DNA of 63,984 bases, the filler included, from an uncultured bacterium (GTDB taxonomy: Bacteria; CAYJRR01): the NCBI GenBank assembly GCA_964372275.1. It is 3 parts of 3 records of this genome, joined end to end, with 100 filler letters (N's around TTAATTAATTAA, not from the genome) between each part and the next. Parts side by side here need not be neighbours in the genome. Positions count along the whole stretch, not along the records: positions 1 to 26,743 come from CAYJRR010000061.1; 2 more parts are not named here. One strand, 5' to 3'. The stretch's first letter is position 1; every line of letters starts with the position of its first letter. The translations under genes and the position numbers were made by a program. Shown here piece by piece: positions 5,413-26,843 of the stretch. The notes beneath the pieces are model-generated. The model was given only the letters and a program-made list of their open reading frames with translations. It searched no databases and had not been told where the DNA came from.

Positions 5413-5425
5413 ACGGCGAGACCTC

Positions 5426-7279
5426 GTGGCGAGCCACACCTTCCCGCCGTCCGACGCAGCCGGCGCCCCGAAGGAACCGCGCGGCGGGCGCGCCAACCGA
5501 TCCGAATCGGAGCGGATGGCCCGGCCCCGGCGATGGCGGCTGGTCCGTGGCGCCTCCGACGAGACGGTCGACGTCCTGGCGCGGACGCTCCGGCTGACCC
5601 GGGCCACCGCCGCCGTCCTCGCCAACCGCGGATTGGCCGACCCGGACCAGGCGCGGCGTTTCCTTCGGCCGTCGTTCGACGAACTCCCCGATCCCGGCCG
5701 GCTGAAGCAGATGGACCGGGCGATCGAGGTGGTGGTGCGGGCGGTGAAGGAGCGGCGCCGGATCGTCGTGCACGGCGACTACGACGTCGACGGCGTCTCC
5801 GGTTCCGCGGTCCTGACCGAGTTTCTGCGCGCGGTCGAGGGGGACGTCGTCCCGTTCATCCCCGACCGCATGAACCACGGCTACGGCTTCTCGCGGGCCT
5901 CGCTCGCCGAGTGCCAGCGGCTGGGGGCGCGGGTGGTGATCACCTGCGACTGCGGAACGGCGTCGGTCGACGAGGTGGCGGAGGCGCAAGGTGCGGGGAT
6001 CGAGGTGGTGATCACCGACCACCACGAGCCCGGTCCGGTCCTCCCCAAGGCGGCCGCGCTCCTCAATCCGAAGCAGGCCGGGGAGACGTTCCCCGACCGG
6101 AACCTGTGCGGCACCGGGATGGCGTTCCTGCTGGTGATCGGACTGCGCCGCGCGCTCCGCGAGGCGGGCTGGTTCGCCGACCGGCCCGAGCCCAACCTGA
6201 AGCTGATGCTCGACATCGTGGCGATCGCGACGATCGGCGACATGGTGCCGCTGACCGGGATCAACCGGGTGCTGGTGCGCGAAGGGATGCCGCTGCTCGA
6301 CGCCGGCCGCCGGCCGGGAATCGCCGCGCTCAAGGAGCTGGCCGGCGTGCGCGACCGGTTCCGCGAATCGCACGTCTCGTTCGGGATCGTGCCGCGCATC
6401 AACGCCGCCGGGAGGCTGGGATCGGCGCGCGTCGCGCTCGACCTGTTGCTGTCGCGCAATCCGGACGAGGCCCGGGAGCTCGCCGCCCGGCTCGACGAGG
6501 CGAACCGCCGGCGTCAGGAGATCGAGGCCGGGATCTTCGAGGAGGCGCTGGCGAAGGTGGCGGCCGACCCGGCCCTGTCGGACGGTCCGGCGATCGTGCT
6601 CGCCTCCGAGGCGTGGCACGCCGGGGTGGTCGGGATCATCGCCGCACGCCTGGTCGACCGTTTCCACAAGCCGGCGATCGTGCTCGCCGTCTCGGAGGAG
6701 AACGGCCAGCGCGTGGCGCGCGGCTCGGCGCGGTCGTTGCGGCGCTTGAACCTGTTCGAGGCGTTGAGCGCCTGCTCCGAGCACCTGCTGCGTTTCGGCG
6801 GCCACGCCGGCGCCGCGGGGATGACCGTCGCCGAAGCGGAGGTCCCACGGCTGCGCGACGCCTTCACCCGCGAAGCGGGGAAGCGGCTCTCGACCGCCGA
6901 CCTCGTGCCGGAGCTCGACATCGACGCCGAGCTCCTCGGCGACCAGATCGACGAGACGTTGGTGATCGAGCTGTCGAACCTGGGCCCGCACGGTGTCGAG
7001 AATCCGGAGCCGATCCTGAAACTGCGCGGACTCCCGGTGGTCGGCTCGCGGATCGTGGGGAACAACCATCTCCGTCTCGATCTCGGCGGCGGCTGGGGCC
7101 GGCTGGAGGCGATCGGATTCGGCTACGGCGAGTGCCTGCCGAAGATCCCGGCCAAGCTCGACCTGGCCGTCGTCCCCTACCGTCGCGAATGGCGCGGCCG
7201 CATGCAGAACGAGTTCCGCATCAAGGACCTCGGCCTCGGTCCCGTGGAGCAGGTCGCCCCGCTCCACCCGAGCGAGTAG
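5426..7279 (+). CDS. recJ: single-stranded-DNA-specific exonuclease RecJ (start uncertain, alternative ATG 5516)
   Basis: HGDYDVDG, ITCDCG, TDHH, PRINAAGRL, RGSARS, FGGHAGAAG. Confidence 0.96.
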   Translation: MASHTFPPSDAAGAPKEPRGGRANRSESERMARPRRWRLVRGASDETVDVLARTLRLTRATAAVLANRGLADPDQARRFLRPSFDELPDPGRLKQMDRAIEVVVRAVKERRRIVVHGDYDVDGVSGSAVLTEFLRAVEGDVVPFIPDRMNHGYGFSRASLAECQRLGARVVITCDCGTASVDEVAEAQGAGIEVVITDHHEPGPVLPKAAALLNPKQAGETFPDRNLCGTGMAFLLVIGLRRALREAGWFADRPEPNLKLMLDIVAIATIGDMVPLTGINRVLVREGMPLLDAGRRPGIAALKELAGVRDRFRESHVSFGIVPRINAAGRLGSARVALDLLLSRNPDEARELAARLDEANRRRQEIEAGIFEEALAKVAADPALSDGPAIVLASEAWHAGVVGIIAARLVDRFHKPAIVLAVSEENGQRVARGSARSLRRLNLFEALSACSEHLLRFGGHAGAAGMTVAEAEVPRLRDAFTREAGKRLSTADLVPELDIDAELLGDQIDETLVIELSNLGPHGVENPEPILKLRGLPVVGSRIVGNNHLRLDLGGGWGRLEAIGFGYGECLPKIPAKLDLAVVPYRREWRGRMQNEFRIKDLGLGPVEQVAPLHPSE

Positions 7280-7315
7280 AACCGCGGGACACCGGAGTAG
7301 AATCGTCGCGAACCC

Positions 7316-9418: not shown

Positions 9419-9419
9419 G

Positions 9420-11468
9420 GTGAGCCGGCACCGGAAGCGCGCGCCCGACGGCCGGCGCCAGACCGAGTCATCACCGACGGCCCTGCTGGCGCGGCCGCTG
9501 CCCGACCTCCGCCGCGAGTGGGCGGCGCCGCTCACCTCGTTCCTGCTCGTCTTCGCGGTCTTCGTCTGGAGCGCCCCGCGGACGGTGACCCTGGAGGATT
9601 CGGGCCTGTTCATCATGTCCTGCCACACCGCCGGGATCTCCCACGCCCCCGGCTATCCGCTCCACAGCCTGCTGGGAAAGCTGTTCACGCTGCTGCCGAT
9701 CGGCTCGATCGCCTTCCGCATCCACCTCCTGAGCGCGCTGTTCGGCGCGGCGACGACGGCAGTGTTGTGGTGGATCGCGCGGGTGCTGACCGGCGACGTC
9801 GTCCTCGCCCTCGCCGCGTCGATCGGCTACGGCGTGTCGCGCGAGTTCTGGGCGCAGAGCATCATTGCCGAGGTCTACAGCCTCAACACCTTCCTCTTCC
9901 TGCTCCTGTTCGCGGTCGCCCTGGCCTATCGGATCGACGGCGACGCGCGCCGGCTGCCGGTCGCCGGCCTGTTGCTCGGTCTGGGATTGAGCCACCACTG
10001 GCCGCTGGTGGCGCTCTCGCTGCCGGCGGTCGTGTGCCTCCTTTGGCCGCGGAGGCGCGCCCTCCTTCCGCATCTGCCCCGGTGCGCGGCCTTCGCCGCC
10101 GCCGGGTTGGTGCCGTTCGTGTGGATGGTCCTCCGCTCGTGGAGCGATCCGCCGATCAGCTTCATCGGTCCGCTCGATTCGCCGTCGCGCGTCCTCTACT
10201 TCATCCTGCGCAAGGGGTACGAGGAGGTCGACGTCAGCGCCACCGCCGGGTGGAGCGACCGCGCCCGCTTCCTGGGCTACTTCGCCGGACAGGTCGCCGC
10301 GCAGCAGACGGTGGTCGGCCTGGCGTTCGCCGCACTCGGGTTCGCCGCGCAGTGGCGGCGGTGGCCGAGGGAGATCGGTCTGGCGCTCACGCTCCTGTTC
10401 CTCGGGAGCAGCGTCCTGGTGGTCCTCCTGCTCCGGCGCGACTTCACCTTCTACGAGCGCGCCGTCTTCAAGGTCTACCCGCTCCTTTCCTACGCCGCGC
10501 TGTCGATCTGGATCGCCGCCGGCATCGACGCCGTGCGCGACGCCCGGATGCGCCGCGCGGTCCACCCGTCGGGCATCCAGGGGGAGCGCCCCCTGCGCGG
10601 ATTCGCGCCGGTGGCCGCGCTCTCGGTCGTCGGGCTGGCGGTGCTGTTCAACGCGCCGCTCAATGTCCGGCGCGACGACCGGTGGGGCCGCGACTTCGCC
10701 GAGACGGTCCTTGCATCGCTCGAGCCGAACGCCGTCTTCTTCACCCACGGCGACGTCGACACCGGAACGCTGGGATACCTGAACCGCGTCGAAGGGGTCC
10801 GGCCGGACGTGACGATCTACAACTCGCGCGGGCTGGTGTTCTCCAATCGCCTCTTCCGAATCCCTCCGACGCCGGCGGTCCGCGCGCGGGCGCTGCGGGA
10901 GTTCGTGGAGCGGACCGATCGGCCGGTCTACTACAACGGCGATCTCGAAGGGCCGTGGGGGGTCGAGCTTCATCCGCTCTTCCGCCGCGTCGTCAAGTCG
11001 CTTCCGCCGGGAACCCAGCGCACGGTGGCGCACCCGGACATCGTCGACTACTGCCGCCGGATCGCCGCCGACACCGGCGAGAGGGAGATCTGGACGGTGG
11101 GCCACCGCTCGGCGATGGTCTCCAACTGCGGCCGCGCGCTCGCAACGATCGTCCGGGAGTCGAACGACGTGGGCACGACCGAGGCGATGGAGGTCGTCTC
11201 GGGCGCGTTCTCCGGAAAGGTCGGCCTCCTGGACCGGATGGCCCACGACGGCGACCTCGCGCTCGTCTCGCGGTGGGTGGACGAAGCCGATCGCCAACTC
11301 GTGGGCGACCTGCCGGAGACCCATCTCGCCCGTTACTTCTACCTGCGCTCGCTCGTCCGGGCGCGGCAAGGGGACACCCGCCGGGCGCGCGACGACCTGA
11401 ACCGCTCGATCGCCCTCCATCCCTGGCCCGACGCGGTCGAGGAACGGGACCGCCGGCGCGCCAAGTAG
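9420..11468 (+). CDS. DUF2723/TMEM260-like glycosyltransferase, tandem paralog
   Basis: Same motifs as 7316-9418 (EDSGLF, SHAPGYPL, AEVYSLN, HGDVDT, VEGVRPDV); colinear over nearly full length. Confidence 0.85.
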   Translation: MSRHRKRAPDGRRQTESSPTALLARPLPDLRREWAAPLTSFLLVFAVFVWSAPRTVTLEDSGLFIMSCHTAGISHAPGYPLHSLLGKLFTLLPIGSIAFRIHLLSALFGAATTAVLWWIARVLTGDVVLALAASIGYGVSREFWAQSIIAEVYSLNTFLFLLLFAVALAYRIDGDARRLPVAGLLLGLGLSHHWPLVALSLPAVVCLLWPRRRALLPHLPRCAAFAAAGLVPFVWMVLRSWSDPPISFIGPLDSPSRVLYFILRKGYEEVDVSATAGWSDRARFLGYFAGQVAAQQTVVGLAFAALGFAAQWRRWPREIGLALTLLFLGSSVLVVLLLRRDFTFYERAVFKVYPLLSYAALSIWIAAGIDAVRDARMRRAVHPSGIQGERPLRGFAPVAALSVVGLAVLFNAPLNVRRDDRWGRDFAETVLASLEPNAVFFTHGDVDTGTLGYLNRVEGVRPDVTIYNSRGLVFSNRLFRIPPTPAVRARALREFVERTDRPVYYNGDLEGPWGVELHPLFRRVVKSLPPGTQRTVAHPDIVDYCRRIAADTGEREIWTVGHRSAMVSNCGRALATIVRESNDVGTTEAMEVVSGAFSGKVGLLDRMAHDGDLALVSRWVDEADRQLVGDLPETHLARYFYLRSLVRARQGDTRRARDDLNRSIALHPWPDAVEERDRRRAK

Positions 11469-13983: not shown

Positions 13984-14526
13984 CTAGAGCTTCCACTGCA
14001 GCATCACCCGGTCGCGGGCTTCGTCGATGTCGTAGAGGGGGACGGTGAGGTTCTCCCGCTCGCGGCGTTCGGTCAGCTGGCGGATGATGTCGTTGTCCAT
14101 GTCGCGCAGGCGCATGGCGACGACCGAAGCGAGGTAGGCGGTCATCTTCAGCGCCGCGAGGTCGTCGCGCGCCAGGCGCTCGCGAAACGAATCGCGCGCG
14201 ATCTTCATCAGCGAGGCGCGGGTCCGCGCCCGGGCCGCGGCGCTGCGCGTCTCCTCCGTGAGCAGGCTCATCTCCCCGAACACCGATCGGGTGTCGAGCA
14301 CCGCCAGGATGCGGCTTTCGCCGGTGGGAAGCGCCTTCACGATCTCCACCTCGCCGCTCACGACCACGTACATCGCGTCCCCGGAGTCCTGCTCGGAGAA
14401 GACGAGATCCCCCGCCTCGACGTGGACGATCGACGTCTGCGCGACGACGTCCCGGATCTCGTCGGGCGAAAGGACGGCGAACAGCGGGACCTTCTTGAGG
14501 ACGGAGAGCGGGTCCGACGGGGCCAT
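13984..14526 (-). CDS. stand-alone cyclic-nucleotide-binding domain protein
   Basis: LKKVPLFA, GDAMYVVVSGEVEI, FGEMSLL..RSAAARA; no HTH. Confidence 0.88.
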   Translation of the reverse strand: MAPSDPLSVLKKVPLFAVLSPDEIRDVVAQTSIVHVEAGDLVFSEQDSGDAMYVVVSGEVEIVKALPTGESRILAVLDTRSVFGEMSLLTEETRSAAARARTRASLMKIARDSFRERLARDDLAALKMTAYLASVVAMRLRDMDNDIIRQLTERRERENLTVPLYDIDEARDRVMLQWKL

Positions 14527-14541
14527 TCCACCCCGACGCTA

Positions 14542-15711
14542 TCACGGGTCGAAGGGCGGCGGAGGATCGAGGTACGGCACCTCGAACCCGTCGACGAGCG
14601 CCGCCACGTGGGTGGCTCGGCCGTTCCAGACGATCCCGCCGGCGTGGAATCCGGGGAGGTCGATCGCGACCCGCGCACCCCCTCCGGACCACTCGACGAA
14701 GCGCGCATCGCTTGCGCGGAGTGCCTGCAACGCCCACATCGCCGCGCCACGGCCGTCGTCGCCGCCGTAGACCGACACCTGCATCGCGTAGGAGCGGACG
14801 AGCTTCGGCCACAGCTCACGCATCAGGCGGGAGTCGTCGAACAGTTCGACGCCGAGCACGCGACCGGCGGAGGTGAAGACGGCGCCGACCGCGCGGCCAC
14901 GCCAGGCCGACGGCGGCGCGCACCGGGAGACGATCTCGTCGAGGCGACGCGTGACGGCGGGGGACTCGACGTAGGAGCGGTAGGCCCCCGTGGCGCTCGA
15001 GACGCCAGCTTCGGCGCTCTTTCGCTCCACGTGCGACCAGATGTCCTCCTGGCTCCGCCCCGCCGCGGCGCGCGACCGGAGGGCGCCGTCGGCGACCACG
15101 CTGGGCGCGGAGTCGAACGCCGCGCCGCGCGACGCGCGCGCGTCCCAACGACCCTTCTCCACACAGTAGACCGAGACCTCGATCGTGGCGTGCGGAGGCA
15201 CCACCACGTCCTGCCGCAGAACGCGATCCTGCTTCCCTCCGAGCAGGATCTCGCCCGCGAGGAGGAAGACCGGCCGGCGGCCGTGGTTCACCACCAACAG
15301 ACTCGGGACGCTTCCGGCCCCGACCTCGGTGACGCGGAGCGAGCCGCGCCGCACCGCTTCGTCGAGCGTGAGCATCTCCTCTCCGCGTGGCGGGCGCGAT
15401 CCGACGAGGATCGGATGGACGGTCAGACCGGAGTGTCCGTAGGGGCCGCCGAGCCAGGCCTCGGCCAGGAGGCGACGAACCGCATCGGCGTACGGGTCGT
15501 AGCTCGGGGGAGGAGGGGGTGGTGGCGGCGGCGGGGGTTCGTACGGCGGAGGTGGAAGCCAGGGGGTCGGCGGCGGCGGTGCGGCGGTCCCCGAGCCGGG
15601 ACCGACCTCCACCCAGGCGGCCGGGACCGGGTCGGCAACCAGCCAGGCGAGCAGACCCATCCCTCGGACGGCGGCCGCCAGGCCCCGTCGGAACGCGCTC
15701 TTCCGGTTCAT
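14542..15711 (-). CDS. exported ARPP-1 (DUF6569) domain protein with Pro-rich linker
   Basis: LTLDEA..LRVTE..SVPSL.VVN...PVFLLAGEILLGGKQDRV...YCVEKGRW; N-terminal basic plus hydrophobic signal; poly-Pro tract. Confidence 0.75.
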   Translation of the reverse strand: MNRKSAFRRGLAAAVRGMGLLAWLVADPVPAAWVEVGPGSGTAAPPPPTPWLPPPPYEPPPPPPPPPPPSYDPYADAVRRLLAEAWLGGPYGHSGLTVHPILVGSRPPRGEEMLTLDEAVRRGSLRVTEVGAGSVPSLLVVNHGRRPVFLLAGEILLGGKQDRVLRQDVVVPPHATIEVSVYCVEKGRWDARASRGAAFDSAPSVVADGALRSRAAAGRSQEDIWSHVERKSAEAGVSSATGAYRSYVESPAVTRRLDEIVSRCAPPSAWRGRAVGAVFTSAGRVLGVELFDDSRLMRELWPKLVRSYAMQVSVYGGDDGRGAAMWALQALRASDARFVEWSGGGARVAIDLPGFHAGGIVWNGRATHVAALVDGFEVPYLDPPPPFDP

Positions 15712-15775
15712 GGAGAGACGGACAACCGGTCCCCCGGCCAGGTTCCAGCCGGCCGTCGCAGGACCCCGCCGGCGG

Positions 15776-17185
15776 TCAGCGGCGAGTGACGGTGATCCGG
15801 ACGCGGACCCGACCGTCGACGGCCGAGCCCCTGCGCTCGACCGTCCCCAGCGCGCGGAGGCGAGCCAACAGATCGTCCACGTGATCGCCGTCGATCTCGG
15901 CCACCACCGTCGTCGAACTCCCCACCTTCGAAAGGGAGGGAACGTTGCCGACCGGCGCCACCACCGTCCCGCCCGCTGCCCGGACCGCCTCGATCGCCTC
16001 GGCGGGGGCGATCGCCGACGCGCGCCGGAAGGTGATCTGCACGGCAGCCGCCTCCTCCTTCGACGATTCGCGGTCCACCGTCGAGGCCGCGCCGCCGCCA
16101 CTCGGCGCGGACCCGGTCTGAGACCAGTCCCCACCGGCTTCCGACGCGGGCCCGCCTCCCCCCCATTCGTCGGAGGCCGCCGCGGCGCGCCCTCGACGCG
16201 AGCCGCCGGCGTCCTTCTTCTTCTCGGCGCGCACGTCCTTGGCGGCCGGCGCCGGAGCCGCGGGGGGCGGCTCCAACGAGGGCTCGGCGGAATACGACGC
16301 GTCACTGCCGATCGAGTCGAGCGACGGCGCCATCTCCGCTTCCAACGAGGACTCCTCCACGAAGGTACTGGCCGGTGGCGGCGCGAAGTTCACAATGGGC
16401 TCCGGGGGCGGTGGGGCGCGCGGCGCAGCGGCTCTCCGCGGCACGCCGTCCGGCTCGTCCGACGCCTTCCCGAAGGCGGGTTCCGCGACGACGACCGACG
16501 AAGGCGGAGGAGAAGCCCTGGCGCTCCGCTCGGGAATCGCCACGATTTGCGGGCGCGCCTTGGCCACGGGCGGGGGTCGATTCGCTTTGTCGCGCTCCTC
16601 GTCGGCTGGACCGCTCTCGAAGCGTGCCTCGCGTTCCGTCGTGGCGCCGAGCCCCCCCGCACCGCCGAACACCCGATCTGCCGCGGTTGCTTCGGGCTCG
16701 GCCGGGGGCGCAAGCGCGGAGGGCGGCGGAGGCGGCTCCTCCACCACCGTGCTCGCCTGCGCGCCGGCGTCGAGCGAATCCTCGATGATGACATCGGCCG
16801 TGCGGCGCCCGGGCGCGCCGTCCAGCGCGAACAGGTCGGCGCGATCGTTGCGATACATCCAGACGCCGGCGATCAGCACCGTCGAGGCGAAGACGACCCC
16901 GGCCGCCACCGGCCTCGGGATCCGCGTCGCCGCGACGAGCCCCTCCTGCAGCCACTGGAGCCAGCTCCGCCGCTCGGCCTTCTCGCGCACCCGCGCCAGC
17001 AGATCGACCGGGGCGCGGTGGACCGGCAGGGCGCGGAGCATCCCCCGAACCGCCCGGAGGGCCTCCAACTCCCTCGCGCATTCGCGGCAACCGTCGATGT
17101 GGCGGGTCAGTTCCGCACGGCGGACCGGATCGACCGCCTCGTCGAGGAGCTCGCTCAGGGAATTTCGTGCCATGAAGCAGGTCAT
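15776..17185 (-). CDS. zinc-finger (zf-HC2) transmembrane anti-sigma factor
   Basis: C...HIDGCREC, single TM, long low-complexity periplasmic region; overlaps sigma gene stop. Confidence 0.85.
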   Translation of the reverse strand: MTCFMARNSLSELLDEAVDPVRRAELTRHIDGCRECARELEALRAVRGMLRALPVHRAPVDLLARVREKAERRSWLQWLQEGLVAATRIPRPVAAGVVFASTVLIAGVWMYRNDRADLFALDGAPGRRTADVIIEDSLDAGAQASTVVEEPPPPPSALAPPAEPEATAADRVFGGAGGLGATTEREARFESGPADEERDKANRPPPVAKARPQIVAIPERSARASPPPSSVVVAEPAFGKASDEPDGVPRRAAAPRAPPPPEPIVNFAPPPASTFVEESSLEAEMAPSLDSIGSDASYSAEPSLEPPPAAPAPAAKDVRAEKKKDAGGSRRGRAAAASDEWGGGGPASEAGGDWSQTGSAPSGGGAASTVDRESSKEEAAAVQITFRRASAIAPAEAIEAVRAAGGTVVAPVGNVPSLSKVGSSTTVVAEIDGDHVDDLLARLRALGTVERRGSAVDGRVRVRITVTRR

Positions 17186-17850
17186 CGGGATCGCTCGTCC
17201 GTGTTAGACAGCCGGGCGCGAAGCTCGTTCCGTGCCCGGTGAAGGCGTGACTTGACCGTCCCCTCGGCCAACCCGAGCGCCTCGCCGATCTCCTCGTACG
17301 AGAGATCCTCCACGTCGCGCAGCAGGACGATCAACCGGTGGTCCTCGTCGAGGGCGCTGATCGCGTCCTGGATGCGGGCGTTCAGACGGCGGCGGGCCGA
17401 CAACTCCTCGGGGGACTCCCCTTCCGCCGGCAGCTCGCGACGGAGCTCGCCGTCCTCCGTCTCGGCGCCTGAGTCGATCGATTCCTGCTGGTGGTGTTTT
17501 CGCCGACGCAGGTACTTCGCTTTGTTGTGACACTGATTGGCGACGATGCGGAACAGCCAGGTGGAGAACTTGGAGCTCTTCTGGAAGCCCTGGACGTGCT
17601 GGAAGACCGACACGAAGACGTCCTGCGCGACCTCTTCCGCGATTGCCCGATCCCGCAGGAATCGGAAGGCCAGGCTGAACACGCGATCCTGGTAACGCCG
17701 CACGAGCGCCTCGAACGCCCCCGGCTGCTTTCGCTGGCACCGCTCGACCAGGTCGAGGTCGGGATCGATCCGCGGGTTCGCCGCGTCGGCGCTACCGGCG
17801 ATCGGCGCCGGCTCGACGTCCGGCCTCCCTCCCGCGCCGCGCTCAACCAC
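17182..17850 (-). CDS. ECF RNA polymerase sigma-70 factor
   Basis: AEEVAQDVF, FSTWLFRIVAN, LSYEEIGEALGLAEGTVKSRLHRAR. Confidence 0.95.
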   Translation of the reverse strand: MVERGAGGRPDVEPAPIAGSADAANPRIDPDLDLVERCQRKQPGAFEALVRRYQDRVFSLAFRFLRDRAIAEEVAQDVFVSVFQHVQGFQKSSKFSTWLFRIVANQCHNKAKYLRRRKHHQQESIDSGAETEDGELRRELPAEGESPEELSARRRLNARIQDAISALDEDHRLIVLLRDVEDLSYEEIGEALGLAEGTVKSRLHRARNELRARLSNTDERSR

Positions 17851-19288
17851 CGGTGCCTCCCAGTCTCGCCAGGTTCGCGCGCGCGCGCTCGTACGCCGGA
17901 TTCACCGCCAACGCCCGCCGGAACTGTGCCTCCGCCTTGGACCGCTCCCCCGCCGCGAGCAGGAGCTCGCCGAGGAGGTTCTGCACGTCGGCGTAGGCCG
18001 GATGCCGCTCGGCGAACGGTCGAAGACGGGCGAGCCCTTCCTCGACGCGACCCATGCGCAGCAGCGTGCGCGCCAGACCGATGCCCGACGGTAGGTAGGA
18101 GGGATCGATCTCCAGCGCCGCCTGGTCCTGCGCCAGCGCGTCCTCGAATCGCGAGAGCGCCAGGTAGGTTTCGGCCAACGTCCGGCGGATCTCGACCAGC
18201 GGCGGAGCCTTTGGCGCCTCGCCCGCCGCGGTCGCGCGAGCCGCGGGGGCGCGGTCGGGGATCGAGGCGGTGGTCGCCACCTCCCCACGCGAGGCGCCGC
18301 GCCCGGTTTGGGCCGCCGCGGCCGGTGGCACGCCGACGGAAACGGAGGGGGCGGCGGCGGCAGGTGCGGAGACCGGCGCGTTCGCCGGCGGGTCCGCGGC
18401 TGGGCGCGCGGACGCCGCGCGCTCCGTCGCGACGCGCGCCTCGGCCTCCGGCAACTCGGCCTCCAGCAGCGCCGCCTGCATCGAAAGCTCCTCCTCGAGG
18501 GCGGCGAGCGTCGGCGACTCGGGTGGGATCGGGAACGGCCGGACCTTCTGCCGCCTCCGCGGCAACACGATCGCCGCCGACAGGCCGGCCGCGATCAGGG
18601 CGAGGGCAAACCAGAACTTTCCGCCGACGCTCCACGTCTTCGCCATCCGCGGCGGCTCGAAGCCCGGCAGGTGCTTGGCGACCGGCACCTCGGGACCGTC
18701 GCCGCGCCGGTAGCGGAGCAGCTTCCGGCTATACTCCCCCTCCGAGACCTCCAGCGGACCGACGCCACGCGCGTACCAGATGTGTCCGGCGAAGATCGGC
18801 TCGGGAAGGCTGGTGAAGTCGACGCGGATCCCGTCGGTCAGGCTTCCGTCGGGAGCGGTGATGCTCCGCCGCTCGGTGACGCGGAACTCCACCCGGCCGG
18901 TCGGCGTCCACGACTCCCATCGCGCGCCCAGATGCAACGGAAACCGGAGGACCCACGTCGTACGCTCCGGCGACGGCATCGTCGACGGCGGTTCGTGGAC
19001 GCGCGCCACCCCCTTCTCCGTGCGGATCAACCAGACGTCGGCGCCGTCCGCGCCGGCGACCGCCGCCGCCTGCGCAAGCACGTGGCCGGCGGAGTCCCGG
19101 ATCTCCTGCACCGAGCGCACGGTGTCGGCCGACTCCCGCCCATCGCTCGCCAGGAAGCTCCACCGCGACCCGACGACCAGTGGCAAGTAGTCGGCGTCGG
19201 CGACCTTCGCCTGAGCGGCGCCGCCCGCCGCCCCTCCAGCGAGCGCCGAGGCCATCACCAAGGCGCGAACTCCAGCTGCCTGTTTCAT
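17843..19288 (-). CDS. membrane protein: exported beta domain, TM, cytoplasmic TPR repeats
   Basis: Signal peptide, YLPLVVGSRWSF...IWYARGVGP domain, TM helix, C-terminal TPRs (AEAQFRRALAVNPAYERARANL); ATGA overlap with moaC. Confidence 0.75.
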   Translation of the reverse strand: MKQAAGVRALVMASALAGGAAGGAAQAKVADADYLPLVVGSRWSFLASDGRESADTVRSVQEIRDSAGHVLAQAAAVAGADGADVWLIRTEKGVARVHEPPSTMPSPERTTWVLRFPLHLGARWESWTPTGRVEFRVTERRSITAPDGSLTDGIRVDFTSLPEPIFAGHIWYARGVGPLEVSEGEYSRKLLRYRRGDGPEVPVAKHLPGFEPPRMAKTWSVGGKFWFALALIAAGLSAAIVLPRRRQKVRPFPIPPESPTLAALEEELSMQAALLEAELPEAEARVATERAASARPAADPPANAPVSAPAAAAPSVSVGVPPAAAAQTGRGASRGEVATTASIPDRAPAARATAAGEAPKAPPLVEIRRTLAETYLALSRFEDALAQDQAALEIDPSYLPSGIGLARTLLRMGRVEEGLARLRPFAERHPAYADVQNLLGELLLAAGERSKAEAQFRRALAVNPAYERARANLARLGGTGG

Positions 19289-19863
19289 CGGGCCCGAATC
19301 GCTCCTCCGGGACCGATCCTCGTGCCCCGATCGTTCGCGCTGGCCCGCCACGTCCCGCTGCGACCGCCGCTCTTCTCGATCAGGCGGATCCGCTCCACCC
19401 GGATCCCGCGGTCGACCGCCTTCAACATGTCGTAGATCGCGAGCGACGCGGCGGCGACGGCGGTCAACGCCTCCATCTCGACGCCGGTCCTCCCCACACA
19501 CCGGACCGAGGAGGTGACGCTCACGCGCGAACGGCCGGCGTCGAGCGCGAAGTCGACCGCCACCGAGCTCAAGGCGATCGGGTGGCAGAGCGGGATCCAC
19601 TCCGACGTGCGCTTCGCCGCCTGGATCCCGGCGATGCGCGCCACCGCCAGCGCGTCCCCCTTCTTCGCCCGGCCGGACGCGAACTGCCGGAACGCCTCGC
19701 GCGACAGGCGGACCTCGCCGCGCGCGACGGCCCGCCGCTCGGTCTCGGGCTTCCCCCCGACGTCGACCATCCGGGCCCGGCCCTTGGCGTCCAGGTGGGT
19801 GAGGGTGGGGACGCGGAGGGAGGATTGGGGGGAGTCCCCCCGGGAGCGCGGACGCGCGGACAT
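19285..19863 (-). CDS. moaC: cyclic pyranopterin monophosphate synthase MoaC
   Basis: LTHLD..GRARMVDV, IPLCHP, TGVEMEAL, IYDMLKAVD, EKSGGRSG. Confidence 0.96.
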   Translation of the reverse strand: MSARPRSRGDSPQSSLRVPTLTHLDAKGRARMVDVGGKPETERRAVARGEVRLSREAFRQFASGRAKKGDALAVARIAGIQAAKRTSEWIPLCHPIALSSVAVDFALDAGRSRVSVTSSVRCVGRTGVEMEALTAVAAASLAIYDMLKAVDRGIRVERIRLIEKSGGRSGTWRASANDRGTRIGPGGAIRAR

Positions 19864-19906
19864 TGTCGTTGGAGTATAGTCCCCCTCCCTTCAGGAGGTA
19901 GTTCGC

Positions 19907-20926
19907 ATGTCGACGGCTCGGGAAGCGCGGGAGGTGGTGATCATCGGCTCCGGACCCGCCGGATTCACCGCCGCGCTCTACACCGCGCGCGCGAAGCTCC
20001 GGCCCCTCCAGTACGAGGGCCTGGCCGCGGGCGGCGTCGGAGGCCTTCCGGGCGGTCAGCTGATGCTGACCACCGAGGTGGAGAACTATCCCGGGTTCGA
20101 GCACGGGATCGACGGGCCGAAGCTGATGGAGGTGATGCGCAAGCAAGCGCTCCGATTCGGCACCGAGATCCGGTCGCTCGACGTGACCAAGGTCGACTTC
20201 ACGCGCCGTCCGTTCCGCATCGAGGCGGGCGAGGAGACGGTCGAAGCCAAGGCGGTGATCATCGCCACCGGCGCGAAGGCCAAGCTGCTGGGTCTCCCGG
20301 AGGAACGGACGGTCGAGCAGGGGGGCCTGATGGGCCGCGGCGTCTCGACCTGCGCCACCTGTGACGGCGCCTTCTTCCGCGACGCCGATCTGGCGGTGGT
20401 GGGCGGCGGCGACAGCGCGATGGAGGAGGCGAACTTCCTCACCCGTTTCGCGAAGACGGTGACGATCGTCCACCGGCGACAGGAGTTCCGCGCCTCCAAG
20501 ATCATGGTCGACCGCGCCAAGGCCAATCCCAAGATCCGGTTCCTGCTCGATTCGTCGATCGACAAGATCCACGACGTGGCGAAGGGGACGGTCACCGGGG
20601 TGCGCATCGTGCACCTGCCGACCGGCGAGCGCCGCGATCTGCCGGTGGAGGGGGTCTTCGTCGCCATCGGCCACACCCCGAACACCGCCCTGTTCCAGGG
20701 TCAGATCGAGCTCGACGCGAACGGCTATGTCGTCACCAAGAAGGGGACCTCGACCAGCGTCCCCGGTATCTTCGCCTGCGGCGACGTCGCCGACCACGTC
20801 TACCGCCAGGCGATCACCGCCGCCGGCACGGGCTGCCAGTCGGCGCTGGACGCGGAGCGATGGCTCGCCCACGGCAACCACCTCGTCGACGCCGCCGCCA
20901 ACGACGCGCGCTCCGTTCACGCGTAG
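19907..20926 (+). CDS. trxB: thioredoxin-disulfide reductase
   Basis: IIGSGPAG, CATCDG, VVGGGDSAMEEA, YRQAITAAG; AGGAGG SD. Confidence 0.97.
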   Translation: MSTAREAREVVIIGSGPAGFTAALYTARAKLRPLQYEGLAAGGVGGLPGGQLMLTTEVENYPGFEHGIDGPKLMEVMRKQALRFGTEIRSLDVTKVDFTRRPFRIEAGEETVEAKAVIIATGAKAKLLGLPEERTVEQGGLMGRGVSTCATCDGAFFRDADLAVVGGGDSAMEEANFLTRFAKTVTIVHRRQEFRASKIMVDRAKANPKIRFLLDSSIDKIHDVAKGTVTGVRIVHLPTGERRDLPVEGVFVAIGHTPNTALFQGQIELDANGYVVTKKGTSTSVPGIFACGDVADHVYRQAITAAGTGCQSALDAERWLAHGNHLVDAAANDARSVHA

Positions 20927-20936
20927 TCTCGACCCG

Positions 20937-21521
20937 CTATCGAATCGTGGCGGAAAAACGGCCCCGCACCGCGGAGCCGAGCTCGGTGCCCGCCTTCTCG
21001 ATCGTGACGGTGCCCCCCACGCCTTCCGCCTCGCGCTCGATCTCGACCGGAATCCCGTTGGCGTCGAACGTGATCTCGGCGACGAGCAGCGCGGCGCGGT
21101 CGTCCTCGGGAGGGGACGGCACGATCGCGGCCGATCCGCCGTCGATCCACGCTTCCGGCGCGATCTGGATCTCCACCACTTCGAGCCGCGTCTCGGAGAC
21201 GAACTGGTGGATCTGCACCGCGTAGAAGGAGACCTCGTCCGGGTCGAACGTCTGTTGCCCGTTCGCGTCGATGGCGAACGCCGAGGCCCCTTGCGCAATC
21301 GTCCGTGAACCGCCGGCCCGCGTGATCACCACCGCGCCGTCTCCGACGTTCGGCGGATCGGAGCCGGGCACGTAGATCTCGCAATCGAAGGAACCGGTCG
21401 CGGTGCCACCGGCCGGATCGCCGCCGCCCTCGGCGCCGCAACCGGTCAGTGCCAACAGGGCCGAAGCGAGCGACGCCGCGCCCGCCCGGCCACTACCGGA
21501 GCGCCGACGCCGCACGGTCAC
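20937..21521 (-). CDS. lipoprotein A of tandem array (apparent circular permutant)
   Basis: Lipobox LTGC; shares array motifs in swapped order. Confidence 0.75.
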   Translation of the reverse strand: MTVRRRRSGSGRAGAASLASALLALTGCGAEGGGDPAGGTATGSFDCEIYVPGSDPPNVGDGAVVITRAGGSRTIAQGASAFAIDANGQQTFDPDEVSFYAVQIHQFVSETRLEVVEIQIAPEAWIDGGSAAIVPSPPEDDRAALLVAEITFDANGIPVEIEREAEGVGGTVTIEKAGTELGSAVRGRFSATIR

Positions 21522-22194
21522 CCGCCATCCGGATGCGTTGCTCGCGCGTCGCCGGCGCGAACGACGATCCGGCGTCGTAGCAGAGGGCGTAGGAGACGTC
21601 GGCGCCGAGCGTCAGCGTCGATCCGAGGTAGAGGATCTCGATCGTCCCCTGCCCCTCCTCGACGTCGGGCGAGGCAGGATCGGTCCAGACTCCGTCGAAG
21701 CTGCCGGTACCCGACTCCCCCTGCGACGTGGAGAGGTTGCCGGCGGTGTCGATCAGGAAGTACTCCTGCGCCTGGGCGTCCGCGAACGCGACCTCCCCTC
21801 CGATGGCGAGCGGGCCGTCCTCGTTGACCGTGAGCACGAAGCTGCCGGACGTGGCGAGGATCGAGGCAGCCCCGACGTGGGAGGCGAGGTCGTAGTCGTC
21901 GACGAACGCCCCGACCACGTTGGTGAACCCCTCCGGATCGCCGACGAAGTAGCCGGCGGTACCCGTCACCCACCTCGCCGCCGGGGCGTCGAGGACGTAG
22001 TAGTCGATCACCTGCGTCTGATCCGGGGGATCGCGGGTGACCCAGACGATCTGACAGCCGACCGGTTCGAACTCCGTCGGCTCCGGCGTCGGATCCGTGC
22101 CATCGTCGTCGTCGCCATCGCCGGAGCAGGCGCCCGCCGCCACGGCGAGCGCCAGCGTGATCGGCAGCGCGGCGCGGAGTCCCCGGCGGAGCAT
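21493..22194 (-). CDS. lipoprotein B of tandem array
   Basis: AGAC lipobox; CQIVW, W.TG, ATSGSF, FDGVWTDP, YALC. Confidence 0.85.
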   Translation of the reverse strand: MLRRGLRAALPITLALAVAAGACSGDGDDDDGTDPTPEPTEFEPVGCQIVWVTRDPPDQTQVIDYYVLDAPAARWVTGTAGYFVGDPEGFTNVVGAFVDDYDLASHVGAASILATSGSFVLTVNEDGPLAIGGEVAFADAQAQEYFLIDTAGNLSTSQGESGTGSFDGVWTDPASPDVEEGQGTIEILYLGSTLTLGADVSYALCYDAGSSFAPATREQRIRMAGDRAASALR

Positions 22195-22209: not shown

Positions 22210-22866
22210 CTACTTCCGCGTTCGAGGAAGCCGGATGCGGACCCCCGAATGGATCTCGTCGCCCGTTTCCGCCACCGGCTGGCACTGCGCGTAGCGCGTG
22301 TAGGTGCCGATCGTCAGGCTCGAGCCGTGGTAGACGAATTCGACCAGTCCCGAACCCGGCGTCGGGATGTCGGCGTTGTTCGCCGACCAGACGCCGTCGA
22401 AATCGGCCTCCCCCCCGGACCCGATCACCGGACCGTTGACTTGGTCCAGGCTGTTGACGTCGAAGTAGACCTTGCCGCCGGTGTCGAGCAGCGAGACGGC
22501 GCTGCCGACCGCCAAGCTGCCGCTCGAGACGGTGACCGTCAGCGTCCCGTTGGTCGCCATCGCCCGGGCGACGTACTCCCCGGAGTCGGGCTCGTACTCG
22601 TCGTAGAAGAGCGCGAACCGCCCCTGCGTCCGGTCGAGGGCCTTGGTTCCGGAGGTCCAGTCGTGGTCGAACATCGCCACGACGTAGAGATCGAACCGTC
22701 CGACGTTTGCACCGTGCGCCGACCAGAGGATCTGACAGGACGGGGTCGTCTGCTCGCTCGCCTCGTAGTCCTCGTTCTTCTCCTTCTCGCACGCGAGCAA
22801 CCCGACGAGGCTCGCGAGCGCGAGCGTGGTCAGCAGCAGTCCCGTTCGCCGGCCGTTGGCTGCCAT
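22210..22866 (-). CDS. lipoprotein C of tandem array
   Basis: LLAC lipobox; CQILW, WTSG, ATNGTL, FDGVWS, YAQC; GGAGGAG SD. Confidence 0.85.
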   Translation of the reverse strand: MAANGRRTGLLLTTLALASLVGLLACEKEKNEDYEASEQTTPSCQILWSAHGANVGRFDLYVVAMFDHDWTSGTKALDRTQGRFALFYDEYEPDSGEYVARAMATNGTLTVTVSSGSLAVGSAVSLLDTGGKVYFDVNSLDQVNGPVIGSGGEADFDGVWSANNADIPTPGSGLVEFVYHGSSLTIGTYTRYAQCQPVAETGDEIHSGVRIRLPRTRK

Positions 22867-22952: not shown

Positions 22953-23567
22953 TCACTCGTCCTCTTCGTCCTGTGCGCAGGTGGCGTAGGTGAGATCCTC
23001 CCCGAGGACGGTCGCCGTCCCCAGGATCACGATCCGGAACGAGCCGTCTCCGGGGACCACGTCGGAGGAGTACGGATCGCTCCAGACGCCGGTGAAGGTG
23101 CCGGTTCCGGAGGTGCCCGAAGGGACCGACGGCGAACCGGCGGTGTCGAGGAGATAGACCGGCTGCGCGCTGGAGTCGGCGAACGCGATCGAGGCCCCCG
23201 CGGTGACGGCCGGAACGGTGAGCGCGAACGTCCCGCTGGTGACGACGGCCTGCAGGTCGAACGTGCCGTCGTCGAGGTCGTAGCCGCGCACGTAGGTCCC
23301 GACGAAGCCATCCTCCGCCGAGAGCGCGTATCCGTGGGAGGAGCCGGTGACCCACGCCGCGACCGCACCCGAGAGGCGGAAGAAGTCGATCCGCTCCCCT
23401 TCCGCCGAGTTGATCCAGAGGATCTCGCACCGGTCGGCCGGGAACGGCTCGGTCGGCGACGGCGTCGGCTCCGTTCCGCCGTTCTCCTCCTCGCCGGCGC
23501 ACGCCCCCACGGCGATCCCGACGGCGATCGTCCAACCCAGGATTCGACTCCGGCGTGGCGTCCTCAT
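22953..23567 (-). CDS. lipoprotein D of tandem array
   Basis: VGAC lipobox; CEILW, WVTG, VTSGTF, FTGVWSDP, YATC. Confidence 0.85.
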   Translation of the reverse strand: MRTPRRSRILGWTIAVGIAVGACAGEEENGGTEPTPSPTEPFPADRCEILWINSAEGERIDFFRLSGAVAAWVTGSSHGYALSAEDGFVGTYVRGYDLDDGTFDLQAVVTSGTFALTVPAVTAGASIAFADSSAQPVYLLDTAGSPSVPSGTSGTGTFTGVWSDPYSSDVVPGDGSFRIVILGTATVLGEDLTYATCAQDEEDE

Positions 23568-24175
23568 TCGGCGGTCTGGCTCCGGTCGTAGCAGATTCCG
23601 AACAACGTGTGGGTTCCGATCGTCAGCGACGTCCCGTGGTAGACGAGGATCACCTGGCCGTCCCCGGGCGTCGGCAGCACGTCGGGATCGGGATCGGACC
23701 ACACCCCCTCGAAGCTCGCGGCGCCTCCGCTGCCGACCTGGGCGCCGATCACGTTGTCGCCGTCCATCTCGAAGAAGACCTGCCCCCCGGAGTCGGTCAG
23801 CGCCACCGCGGACCCTTCGGCCGTCGAATCGGTCGTGACGCTGAACGTCCCGCCGGTGGTGACGGCGCGCGCGACGTACTCGTCGGAGTCGACGTCGTAC
23901 TCGTCGAAGAAATAGGCGAGCCGCTCCTTCCCCGTCGGGGTGAGACCATAGCCCTTCTCACCCGAGGTCCAGTTCTCGATCGGCATGTCGAGGATGTAGA
24001 TGTCGTACCGGCCGGCGTTGCTCCCGGTGCTGGCCCAGAAGATCTGGCAGTCGGTCACCTCGTCGCCGTTGTCTCCGCCGCCGTCGTCGTCGCCGCCGCG
24101 ACAACCCGCGATCGACGCCGCGAGGGCGCATCCCCACAGGGCCGCCTGCCATCGAACGAGATCTCGCCGCGTCAC
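23564..24175 (-). CDS. lipoprotein E of tandem array
   Basis: GTG start overlapping upstream stop; IAGC lipobox; CQIFW, WTSG, TTGGTF, FEGVWSDP, FGIC. Confidence 0.85.
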   Translation of the reverse strand: MTRRDLVRWQAALWGCALAASIAGCRGGDDDGGGDNGDEVTDCQIFWASTGSNAGRYDIYILDMPIENWTSGEKGYGLTPTGKERLAYFFDEYDVDSDEYVARAVTTGGTFSVTTDSTAEGSAVALTDSGGQVFFEMDGDNVIGAQVGSGGAASFEGVWSDPDPDVLPTPGDGQVILVYHGTSLTIGTHTLFGICYDRSQTAE

Positions 24176-24849
24176 CGGTCCCCCCCTCGAGGCGCTTCGC
24201 TTGGAAGCTCGTAACAGATTCCGAAGGTCAGAAGCGATCCGAGCGAGCCCAAGTCGGATCCGTTCACCAGGTTCGGGAACGCGACCTCCCCTTCGCCCGC
24301 GGACACATCGCTCGAGTCGAGCGCATCCGGGTCGGACCACACCCCGGAGAACGATCCGATCCCGCCGGACCCCAGCGATGCCCCGAGGGTCCCTTCGTCG
24401 ACGTCGTAGGCGAAGTATTGGGTCTTCGCCGGCTGCTGAAAGCCGACCGCGTCCCCTTCCGAGGTCCCCTCCGACGTCACCTGGAAGGTGCCGTTGGTGG
24501 CGATTCCGACGGCCACGGCGTCCTCGAGTTCGCCGCCCGCCTCGACCCCGTAGAAGAACAGGCCCAGGTTGCCGCCGGCGCCGTCGACTTCGAAGCCGTA
24601 ACTTCCGTCGGCCCAGTTCTCGACCGGAAGGTCGACGACGTAGACGTTGTAGACGTCGCTTCCCGCCGAGTTCGGACCGTACCACTCGATCAGGCAGCCG
24701 TCGGGCTGGAACGCACCGTCGGAGCCGGACGATTCGTCGTCACCGGCATCCCCGCCGCCGCCGCACGCGATCGCCGACAGCATCGCCAGACACACCGCCG
24801 CCGGATGCGCGCGTCGGAAGGAACGTCGTTTGGGCAGGTCTTTCCACAT
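24172..24849 (-). CDS. lipoprotein F of tandem array
   Basis: AIAC lipobox; CLIEW, VENWADG, ATNGTF, FSGVWSDP, FGIC. Confidence 0.82.
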   Translation of the reverse strand: MWKDLPKRRSFRRAHPAAVCLAMLSAIACGGGGDAGDDESSGSDGAFQPDGCLIEWYGPNSAGSDVYNVYVVDLPVENWADGSYGFEVDGAGGNLGLFFYGVEAGGELEDAVAVGIATNGTFQVTSEGTSEGDAVGFQQPAKTQYFAYDVDEGTLGASLGSGGIGSFSGVWSDPDALDSSDVSAGEGEVAFPNLVNGSDLGSLGSLLTFGICYELPSEAPRGGDR

Positions 24850-25096
24850 GACGAGGCACGGAAGAACGCCCGATTCGCGGGGCCAGGCCCGGGCGGGCGC
24901 CCCGCCCTGGCGCCCGCGCGCGGTCGGGAGGCGACATAGTGCCGGTCTTTGGCGTAGCGAAACACATCCCTGGCCAGCATTTTCTGTAGCTGATCTNNNN
25001 NNNNNNTCCCACCTGACGCGGCACGGAAGACCGCCCGATCCGCGCGGCACGGCCGGCGCGCCCGCCCGGCCTTGCCGCGCTCACTCGATCGGAAGG

Positions 25097-25804
25097 CTAC
25101 TTCTTCCGGATCTTGGCCTTCGCGAAACGACCGATCCGGTTGGCCGGCGTGCTCGAGGCAAAGCCGCTCTCCTCGTAGCAGGCGCCGAGCGCACCGTCGG
25201 TGCCGATCGCCCCGAGGTTCGAGCCGTTGACCAGGTTGGAGAAGGTGACGGTGCCGTCGCCGAAGGTGGCCTCGGCGTCGTCGTCCTCGAAGATGTCCGG
25301 ATCCGACCAGACGCCGTCGAAATCACCGACGCCGCCGGAACCGAGCGAGGCGCCGATCGTCTCGTCCTCGAAGTCGAAGTCGTAGTACTTCGTCTTGGCC
25401 GACTGCTCCCAGGTCACCGCGTCGTCCTGCTGGTCGCCTTCGCTCGTGACGGTGAAGGTGCCGTTGGTGGCAATCCCGGCCTTTTCCGCGTCGGTCAGGA
25501 GGGCCGTTTCGAGCGGGATCTTGTAGAAGACCGCGCCCAGGTTGGCCGAGTCGGAGTAGTCGCCGGTGCCGTCGGCCCAGTTCTCGACCGGCATGTCGAT
25601 GCGGTAGGCGTGGAAGTTCTCCTCGTCCGCCGTGAGGGAGTACCAGTCGATGAGGCAGCGATCGGGCTCGAAGGGCGGAGGGGTGGTTCCGTCGTCGTCG
25701 TCGTCGTCACCGCCGGCGCAGGCACTGACACCCAGGGCCATTGCGCTGCCCGCCGCCAGAAGCAGCGAAAGGGAAAGGTTCTTCTTCGAAATCATCTCGG
25801 CCAT
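25097..25804 (-). CDS. lipoprotein G (first gene) of tandem array
   Basis: VSAC lipobox; CLIDW, VENWADG, ATNGTF, FDGVWSDP, LGAC; AGGAGG SD. Confidence 0.87.
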   Translation of the reverse strand: MAEMISKKNLSLSLLLAAGSAMALGVSACAGGDDDDDDGTTPPPFEPDRCLIDWYSLTADEENFHAYRIDMPVENWADGTGDYSDSANLGAVFYKIPLETALLTDAEKAGIATNGTFTVTSEGDQQDDAVTWEQSAKTKYYDFDFEDETIGASLGSGGVGDFDGVWSDPDIFEDDDAEATFGDGTVTFSNLVNGSNLGAIGTDGALGACYEESGFASSTPANRIGRFAKAKIRKK

Positions 25805-25908: not shown

Positions 25909-25924
25909 TGCAAGGAGCCGGCCA
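25909..25924 (-). promoter_or_regulatory. sigma54 (-24/-12) promoter facing the lipoprotein array
   Basis: Minus strand TGGCCGGCTCCTTGCA = GG-N10-GC with TGGC and TTGCA cores, about 105 nt upstream of 25804. Confidence 0.7.
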
Positions 25925-26079
25925 CCAAGGCGTTCGCGCATCTCCCCGATTTCCGGGAGGGGCGCCGCAGACGAAGCGTCCGCGCGCCGGGCGCGGGCCG
26001 AAAACCGGGCGCCGATGTCATAGCCCTCCAGAAGGACGTGGCGTTCGTTTCAGCCTTTTCGGTTAAGATCCCGGAAGAT

Positions 26080-26743
26080 ATGGGCGACCGCGACGTCATC
26101 CCGCAGGAAGTCACCAACGACTCCCCCACGCAGGTCAAATACGTCGACGGAAAGGCGGCCTCGCTCTCACTGATCAAGAGCCGTCTCGTCGTGATCGACG
26201 GGCCGGACCGCGGCAAGGAGATGGTCGTCGGCAAGGACGTCATCAAGATCGGCACCTTCAAGGGCTGCGATTTCGTCCTCACCGACAAGACGATCTCCCG
26301 GACCCATTGCGAGATCCGGACGATGGAGGACGGCTTCATCCTCCGCGACGAGTCGTCGACCAACGGCACCGTCCTCGACGGATACAAGGTGCGCGAGATC
26401 TACCTGAAGCCGGGGACGATCTTCCACGCCGGCAAGACGGCGATCCGCTTCCAGCCGCTCTCGGAACGGGTCGAGATCCCGCTCTCGAAGGAGACCCGCT
26501 TCGGCCACGTCATCGGCGGCTCGGTCAAGATGCGCGAGATGTTCGGGGTGCTGGAGAAGATCGCACCGACCGATCTCACGGTGTTGATCGAGGGGGAGAC
26601 CGGGACCGGCAAGGAGGTGGTGGCCCGGGCGATCCACCAGGGCTCGGCCCGGAAGAACAAGGCGTTCATCGTCGTCGACTGCGGCGCCATCCCGCGCAAC
26701 CTGATCGAGAGCGAGCTGTTCGGGCACGTGCGCGGCGCCTTCA
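26080..26743 (+). CDS. FHA-domain sigma54-dependent enhancer-binding protein, 3' partial
   Basis: FHA (ISRTHCEI, STNGT), Walker A GETGTGKE, ESELFGHVRGAF(T) GAFTGA motif; cut by contig end. Confidence 0.93.
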
Positions 26744-26843
26744 NNNNNNNNNNNNNNNNNNNNNNNNNNNNNNNNNNNNNNNNNNNNTTAATTAATTAAN
26801 NNNNNNNNNNNNNNNNNNNNNNNNNNNNNNNNNNNNNNNNNNN
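26744..26843. other. artificial contig linker
   Basis: N run - TTAATTAATTAA (six-frame stops) - N run. Confidence 0.97.

Follow-up and report, generated by a model that had tools for sequence, protein, structure and literature searches.

Natural circular permutants are known from the saposins and swaposins, from the motif orders of DNA methyltransferases, and from some lectins and glucanases, and they are explained by duplication and fusion. In the stretch of DNA analysed here (the window; 63,984 nucleotides (nt) from assembly GCA_964372275.1 of an uncultured bacterium), seven small lipoprotein genes, called G, F, E, D, C, B, and A, lie head to tail on the minus strand from 25804 to 20937. 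The product of the last gene, A, is best explained, in our judgement with high confidence, as a genuine circular permutant, functional and conserved in evolution, of the small all-beta domain found in the lipoproteins B–G. As in the textbook cases, a homologue carries two blocks of one domain in exchanged positions; a new loop bridges the former termini, and the chain now begins and ends within what used to be a loop. Unlike those cases, paralogues of both forms are neighbours in a single operon whose gene order is conserved, the peptide link at the seam takes the place of an invariant cysteine pair, and one hairpin has been lost; the family, moreover, is unnamed, and its fused intermediate was not found among 156 proteins. 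Natural circular permutation is a known phenomenon, and A is a new and tidy example of it, not a new kind of system.

The array lies on a single contig, which occupies positions 1–26743 of the window and belongs to a 4.6 Mb genome of 225 contigs that is 94.6% complete; the N runs at 26744–26843 and 53334–53433 are joins between different contigs. Start codons of B–G were picked from their signal peptides. In the following list, "canonical" denotes the unpermuted form of the domain, and the homologous blocks of A are those aligned by hhalign.

Gene A, 20937–21521, minus strand: 194-amino-acid (aa) lipoprotein, the permuted member and the last of the array
Gene B, 21493–22194, minus strand: canonical member, whose stop overlaps the start of A by 29 nt
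Gene C, 22210–22866, minus strand: canonical member
Gene D, 22953–23567, minus strand: canonical member, whose ATG overlaps the TGA of E (ATGA)
Gene E, 23564–24175, minus strand: canonical member and reference AlphaFold2 (AF2) model, whose GTG overlaps the TGA of F (GTGA)
Gene F, 24172–24849, minus strand: canonical member
Gene G, 25097–25804, minus strand: canonical member and first gene of the array, with AGGAGG before its ATG
Residues 1–28 of A, 21438–21521, minus strand: signal peptide with an Arg-rich start and the lipobox L-T-G-C (Cys28), as read from the translation
Residues 42–84 of A, 21270–21398, minus strand: homologous to the C-terminal block of B–G (E residues 151–195)
Residues 85–98 of A, 21228–21269, minus strand: 14-residue loop linking what are the C- and N-termini in B–G
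Residues 99–186 of A, 20964–21227, minus strand: homologous to the N-terminal block of B–G (E residues 41–124)

The swapped order is visible when A is compared with a hidden Markov model (HMM) of B–G, which matches it twice: residues 34–94 of A correspond to HMM positions 142–201, and residues 111–185 to positions 54–122. After the HMM had been permuted programmatically, with the C-terminal block placed before the N-terminal one, A gave one continuous match over residues 60–185, across the junction. The full-sequence score of A against this permuted model was 14.8 bits, a value reached by none of 1000 shuffles of mature A, among which the top score was 7.2.

Both forms of the domain have relatives elsewhere. 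A library of 1.84 billion cluster representatives contains 125 that match the canonical family at E <= 0.001 (clusters at 50% identity), and a word-based search for this family gave 14 matches. A alone as query returned one relative, and the two-sequence alignment then returned 19 proteins including A. These 19 A-like proteins (A and 18 relatives from other assemblies) are 170–194 aa long, all carry a lipobox, and all have the same block order; the relatives are 36–45% identical to A, and 30 alignment columns are invariant.

Profiles of the two groups were compared with hhalign, the A-like profile (19 sequences) being aligned with a profile of the canonical domain (99 sequences) rotated in 6-column steps. 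Unrotated, the canonical profile aligns through one block only (71 columns, score 28.6, E 2.9e-4, probability 40.3%), whereas cutting it at domain positions 84–108 yields 124 columns with a score of 42.0, an E value of 1.1e-6, and a probability of 91%, in an alignment that spans A 42–186 in a single stretch. The halves taken separately behave in the same manner: the N-half of A matches the canonical C-part (E 3.9e-6, probability 87%) and its C-half the canonical N-part (E 2.8e-5, probability 74%), in contrast to the same-order controls, with E values of 0.17 (N-half against N-part) and 0.16 (C-half against C-part). No internal repeat was detected in the canonical domain when its C-part was aligned with its N-part (E 0.012, probability 3.7%), and therefore pseudo-symmetry does not account for the swapped match. 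In reciprocal searches of 112 canonical domains with HMMs of the A-like halves, all five N-half matches with E<0.01 fell at relative positions 0.82–0.88, and all eight significant C-half matches at 0.26–0.33. The similarity between A and B–G at the profile level is well above chance. For neither half did a clear donor emerge, the best canonical matches of the two falling in different clades.

The position of the gene is conserved as well. A second scan of metagenomes yielded three loci with A-like proteins (L013, L014, and L015), of which L013 is too short to provide context; a first metagenome scan and profile scans of genome contigs yielded no A-like relative, and no A-like gene turned up among those searched of 60 other genomes of the same domain. 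The window's genome is seemingly the sole representative of its order or phylum among the genomes searched. In L014, which covers 19 kb of a 25-kb contig, the A-like gene (approximately 9965–10504) comes last, after eight canonical genes at 4260–9987, and the stop of the B-type gene overlaps the A-like start by about 26 nt. In L015, a canonical gene likewise precedes the A-like one. In a tree of array members, the genes located just upstream of the A-like gene form one orthologous clade in all three loci with context (B, L014_9418, and L015_344), the latter two being 58% and 50% identical to B. The synteny between the window and L014 comprises a divergent FHA/sigma-54 activator gene, the array, and convergent trxB, moaC, and a gene for a TPR protein.

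The two forms also differ in their cysteines. Both terminal cysteines (Cys42 and Cys194 in E) are present in 99 of 99 canonical domains, of which 94 contain exactly two; they occupy the domain's first residue and the third position from the end of the extracted domain (C-Y-D motif). B–G each carry both, and the pair occurs in none of the 19 A-like proteins. The preliminary description of this stretch had noted that the six neighbours have a cysteine near each domain end, that A lacks the pair, and that a peptide linker joins the old termini in A; these observations hold across the canonical domains and the A-like proteins. In the AF2 model of E, Cys42 is the second residue of strand 41–49, and Cys194 is the penultimate residue of strand 189–195, so placed that antiparallel pairing of the two terminal strands, of the kind seen in closed meander barrels, would bring them face to face. 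Termini that are adjacent and disulfide-linked in B–G are compatible with the 99/99 conservation of the cysteines, their placement at strand ends, and the barrel-like fold class predicted for the domain.

In A, the corresponding seam strands (78–84 and 99–109) are consecutive and joined by residues 85–98, which appear in the permuted alignment as an insertion exactly at the junction between the canonical C-end and N-end. Within the A-like subfamily, D85, Q90, D93, and P94 of this loop are invariant, and the seam is the most conserved part of the protein, with about 15 of the 30 invariant columns located between A76 and V108. The end of the loop, T-[FL]-D-P, resembles F-[EQ]-P-D, which precedes the first cysteine in several canonical tethers; this likeness may be a trace of fusion. 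Apart from the lipobox cysteine, A contains only Cys47 (21381–21383), a position that is cysteine in 17 of the 19 A-like proteins and threonine in the remaining two, and that aligns with the canonical glycine of the S-F-x-G-V-W motif. As a putative free thiol in an exported protein, Cys47 could form an intermolecular disulfide or contact a ligand.

The predicted structures agree with the permuted alignment. The AF2 model of E has a mean predicted local distance difference test score (pLDDT) of 84.2, with 10-residue blocks between 41 and 200 at 82–97, and that of A a mean of 86.4, with blocks between 41 and 194 at 87–98. Both models are all-beta apart from a single short helical turn, which follows strand two of the N-block. 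Along the permuted alignment, their DSSP states agree at 97 of 124 positions (78%), and in this one-dimensional comparison of DSSP strings the permuted register ranks first among 155 cyclic shifts (mean 52%, standard deviation 8%). The elements pair as follows.

Strand A 39–49 with the second half of strand E 142–159
Strand A 60–68 with strand E 171–178
Strand A 71–75 with strand E 181–185
Strand A 78–84 with strand E 189–195
Strand A 99–109 with strand E 41–49
Strand A 112–120 with strand E 56–64
Helical turn A 122–124 with helical turn E 65–67
Strand A 130–134 with strand E 71–74
Strand A 143–152 with strand E 84–93
Strand A 158–177 with strand E 101–114
Strand A 184–193 with strand E 122–127

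Without a partner in A are E 131–136 and the first half of E 142–159. Residues 125–150 of E fall outside the permuted alignment, and approximately one hairpin is missing from A. In this respect the earlier reading needs refinement, A being no pure permutation of the canonical domain. Its central proposal, natural circular permutation of A relative to the neighbouring genes, is borne out by the rotation scan, which is the kind of HHalign comparison that the preliminary description had suggested and which gave 124 columns instead of a single 71-column block, and by the two-by-two test of the halves, the reciprocal matches, the secondary-structure register, and the conserved subfamily.

Several points weigh against this interpretation. 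At the single-sequence level the relationship is weak, A and E being 25% identical over 124 aligned positions, and the individual domain scores of the B–G HMM on A are just 3.6 and 8.4 bits. The hhalign probabilities of 74–91% fall short of 99%. Genomic context comes from two other loci only, both probably of the same lineage, and the fused N-C-N-C intermediate is missing from the 156 proteins. The structural comparison is also of limited weight. In an exhaustive search, the models of A and E both matched the small up-and-down barrels 6x9z_A, 8t0b_A, 3nb3_A, 4rlc_A, and 2f1t_A, with best Z scores (7.1 for E and 6.2 for A) at the background, which is stated as 7–8, so that a shared fold class is only suggestive; in addition, a meander barrel is unchanged by rotation, and barrel matches alone cannot show permutation. 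We therefore take these matches only to mean that the folds of A and E are not visibly different.

The best structural matches, all with Z at or below the background, are small up-and-down barrels: a de novo design (6x9z_A), PagL (2erv_B), the N-domains of OmpA/OprF (3nb3_A/4rlc_A), and 8t0b_A, an entry titled 'Novel Domain of Unknown Function Solved with AlphaFold'. The model of E aligns with 6x9z_A at Z 7.1 (root-mean-square deviation (rmsd) 4.2 Å, 115 residues aligned) and with 8t0b_A at Z 6.8 (rmsd 5.3 Å, 107 aligned), and the model of A with 3nb3_A at Z 6.2 (rmsd 3.8 Å, 98 aligned) and with 8t0b_A at Z 5.9 (rmsd 4.6 Å, 98 aligned). These barrels share 6–8% sequence identity with A and E. 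PDB sequence searches with profiles A3 and A4 gave no hit at E <= 1; a Foldseek search of the PDB with model E returned nothing at E <= 0.001. Unlike integral membrane barrels, A–G are lipid-anchored soluble domains. Surface lipoprotein barrels of the neisserial type (NHBA, 6cuj_B; TbpB, 4qq1_A; HpuA, 9mr0_A; HphA, 8gm3_B) are, like A–G, lipoproteins with a small beta-barrel; they match E at a background-level Z of 4.2–5.1, without sequence similarity, and are absent from the 50 matches listed for A. Across Slam-type surface lipoprotein barrels and OmpA-like eight-stranded barrels, Z is 4.2–7.1 for E and at most 6.2 for A, again background values.

On this reading, the form of A can be described relative to the canonical one. 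The canonical domain consists of about 155 residues with invariant cysteines on its first and last strands and an acidic tether of 18–24 residues leading to the lipid-modified cysteine. In A, a short conserved tether enters directly at the canonical third-from-last strand; the chain continues to the old C-terminal strand, which the conserved loop of 14 residues then connects to the old N-terminal one, with both seam cysteines replaced. It ends after the seventh canonical strand element, and the next hairpin (E approximately 128–148) is gone. The seam, probably stapled by a disulfide in B–G, would be closed in A by a peptide hairpin, with the barrel opened elsewhere.

A single origin of the A-like form, from a canonical gene in a tandem, translationally coupled array, is most likely; since then, one copy would have been retained as the 3'-terminal gene of the array, immediately downstream of the B-type paralogue. 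This direction is favoured because the canonical form is the more diverse and occurs also solitary and fused, whereas the A-like proteins are a tight clade seen only at array ends. The opposite direction, with the permuted order ancestral and the disulfide-closed canonical order derived, would leave the permutation itself real, and we regard it as improbable. Nothing specific speaks for it beyond the fact that direction cannot be read from two alignable forms without a rooted tree, and it has to contend with a canonical family of far greater diversity (125 clusters at 50% identity, while the 19 A-like proteins are each 36–45% identical to A), with the occurrence of canonical domains alone and joined to other domains, and with an A-like gene seen only as a single copy at array ends. 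As for the route from a canonical gene to A, the overlapping stops and starts of tandem genes are well suited to fusion by read-through, after which the outer parts would have been lost. We put the chances of this route at roughly even; no N-C-N-C intermediate occurs among the 156 proteins, and the new signal peptide of A needs an additional step.

We consider it very unlikely that A is a small lipoprotein with no relation to B–G, located beside the array by accident, its swapped similarity being due to chance or composition. The weak single-sequence scores, the Gly/Asp/Thr-rich all-beta character of both A and B–G, and the lack of a common Pfam family would fit such a coincidence. However, a coincidence should not give a permuted-HMM score beyond all 1000 shuffles, a profile–profile E value of 1.1e-6 that appears at the predicted rotation only with same-order controls at 0.16–0.17, a secondary-structure register that is best at shift 0 of 155, and a position after a B-type gene kept in three of three loci with context. 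Database searches assigned neither form to a named family: the Pfam cut-off was not reached by A, B, G, the 19 A-like members, or the first 17 canonical members, and the NCBIfam cut-off by none of A–G. DUF7349, the best recurring Pfam match, was dropped, as it matched eight of the 19 A-like proteins at no more than 17 bits against a 27-bit cut-off and over 25 residues only. In the ESM Atlas, E has a top score of 0.76, and A scores 0.91–0.92 to unnamed clusters of about 190 aa, the commonest phylum of which is Myxococcota, and 0.89 to a cluster in which 58% carry DUF6252, a family that hmmscan did not find; these atlas matches are leads only. A full-text literature search, judged from its listings, gave nothing on the A/B–G lipoprotein family.

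That A is an assembly chimera or a non-functional remnant of recent recombination, made of the 3' part of one array gene and the 5' part of the next, is scarcely credible. In its favour, tandem paralogues are prone to misassembly, the scaffold has a 10-N gap inside the array, and in run X3 one low-depth Logan contig (depth 2, a 21-nt side, 4 extra letters) connects 22123 with 24079 and leaves out 1955 nt. Against it, the identity of A to its neighbours is as low as about 25%, so that A is no recent chimera; A has its own signal peptide and lipobox, and its 18 relatives in other assemblies share 30 invariant columns with it; and Logan contigs from three runs and two studies (at least 95% likeness) cover the stretch holding A with no joint or indel listed inside it. 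In the listed pieces, the junction of B with A is spanned by contigs of X1 and X3, and that of A with trxB by contigs of X1 and X2; for the permutation junction itself (21228–21269), only X1, possibly the sample from which the window was assembled, has a listed contig that contains it. A is not an assembly artefact. The X3 contig connecting 22123 with 24079 may come from a shorter array formed by recombination between B and E, or may itself be chimeric.

Taking A as a conserved permutant, some of its features bear on what it might do. Its tether is short and conserved (about 11 residues, C-A-P-E...), in contrast to the 18–24 acidic, low-complexity residues of the canonical tether; it has a conserved seam loop in place of the seam cysteine pair, and the hairpin that it has lost carries the canonical D...Q.YF motif. 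The array products are probably envelope lipoproteins forming a diversified set of binding modules, and the features of A would fit a constant member that sits nearer the membrane and works with the variable set of paralogues. The preliminary description had conjectured that A might be a capping or anchor subunit. A further proposal, which we consider unlikely, is that the array builds a hetero-oligomeric envelope structure in which permuted A serves as an invariant membrane-proximal base or terminator and pairs specifically with the B-type paralogue. Such pairing might occur through the missing hairpin, received in trans, or through a disulfide of Cys47, while the canonical barrels, with their long tethers and disulfide staples, would be the part that differs in number and sequence. 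If this were true, the permutation would have converted a binding module into an assembly module. A predicted complex of B (44–233) and A (36–194), each with its own alignment, scored 0.00 and is uninformative on binding.

All seven products have a basic-then-hydrophobic signal peptide ending in a lipobox cysteine. Read from the translations and set against the lipobox definition [LVI][ASTG][GAS]C, the lipoboxes are LTGC in A (LALTGC, Cys28) and AGAC, LLAC, VGAC, IAGC, AIAC, and VSAC in B–G; the lipobox cysteine is invariant in both the canonical and the A-like alignments (19 of 19 in the latter). The GTGA (24172–24175) and ATGA (23564–23567) overlaps, together with the 29-nt overlap between B and A, suggest translational coupling along the array. 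A 10-N run at 24997–25006, between G and F and inside the contig, represents either a scaffold gap or masked bases, and the array could therefore exceed seven genes.

Sigma-54 operons under FHA-domain bacterial enhancer-binding proteins (bEBPs) have been described in Myxococcus. The array resembles them in having a divergent activator and a TGGC-N7-TTGCA element upstream, in two syntenic loci, although here the arrangement is known from sequence. The elements concerned are the following.

25909–25924, minus strand: sigma-54-type −24/−12 element TGGC-N7-TTGCA, 105 nt upstream of the ATG of G and facing the divergent activator gene
26038–26743, plus strand: divergent gene for an FHA-domain sigma-54 activator (bEBP), cut by the contig end (Pfam FHA 4.7e-15, Sigma54_activat 2.2e-27)
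L014 4232–4247, plus strand: TGGC-N7-TTGCA element, about 100 nt upstream of the first array gene and beside the divergent activator

The element is the single match in the 64-kb window, against 0.08 expected, and likewise the single match in L014, against 0.04 expected; a loose promoter search with two mismatches was not above chance (28 found, 34.9 expected). The genome encodes rpoN (sigma-54; 216 bits). Because of the promoter element and the divergent activator, both conserved in L014, and the presence of rpoN, the whole array is probably one sigma-54-dependent operon under a divergent, phospho-threonine-sensing FHA activator. No RNA run was among the sequencing runs listed for the stretch of A, which says nothing either way on expression.

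Downstream of the array, positions 13984–20926 of the window hold the convergent thioredoxin-reductase-like gene, moaC, and the TPR protein gene that are shared with L014. By reading, the window's translations also show an extracytoplasmic function (ECF)-type sigma factor, an anti-sigma factor, and a cyclic nucleotide monophosphate (cNMP)-binding protein, and L014 also carries a zf-HC2 anti-sigma-like gene and an ARPP-1 gene.

The window's genome contains 11 canonical copies, six in the array and five elsewhere, and one copy of A. The five additional copies (loci L008–L012) lie on contigs C5 (two places), C6, C20, and C41; three of them are C-terminal in open frames of 325–434 aa whose N-terminal parts have no Pfam match, and two are plain lipoproteins. 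In other organisms, the canonical domain also occurs solitary and fused behind extracytoplasmic domains. It follows CHB_HEX_C_1 (chitobiase/hexosaminidase C-terminal) and Fn3_assoc in P0038 and IPT/TIG in P0052; as read from these domain combinations, the fusions hint that the domain acts at the cell surface, perhaps in connection with glycans.

Natural circular permutations are known, yet few cases are clean. Here, the permuted form is a conserved subfamily and not a one-off, its unpermuted paralogues are kept in the same operon, and a probable disulfide staple at the barrel seam has been swapped for a peptide loop; the locus therefore constitutes a natural experiment on chain connectivity versus disulfide closure. 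It also informs how tandem, translationally coupled arrays can yield new topologies. The unnamed lipoprotein family (125 clusters at 50% identity and the permuted 19) could be given two linked profile models, which would stop annotation pipelines from labelling A-like genes as orphans, and the finding is of moderate interest for both protein evolution and annotation.

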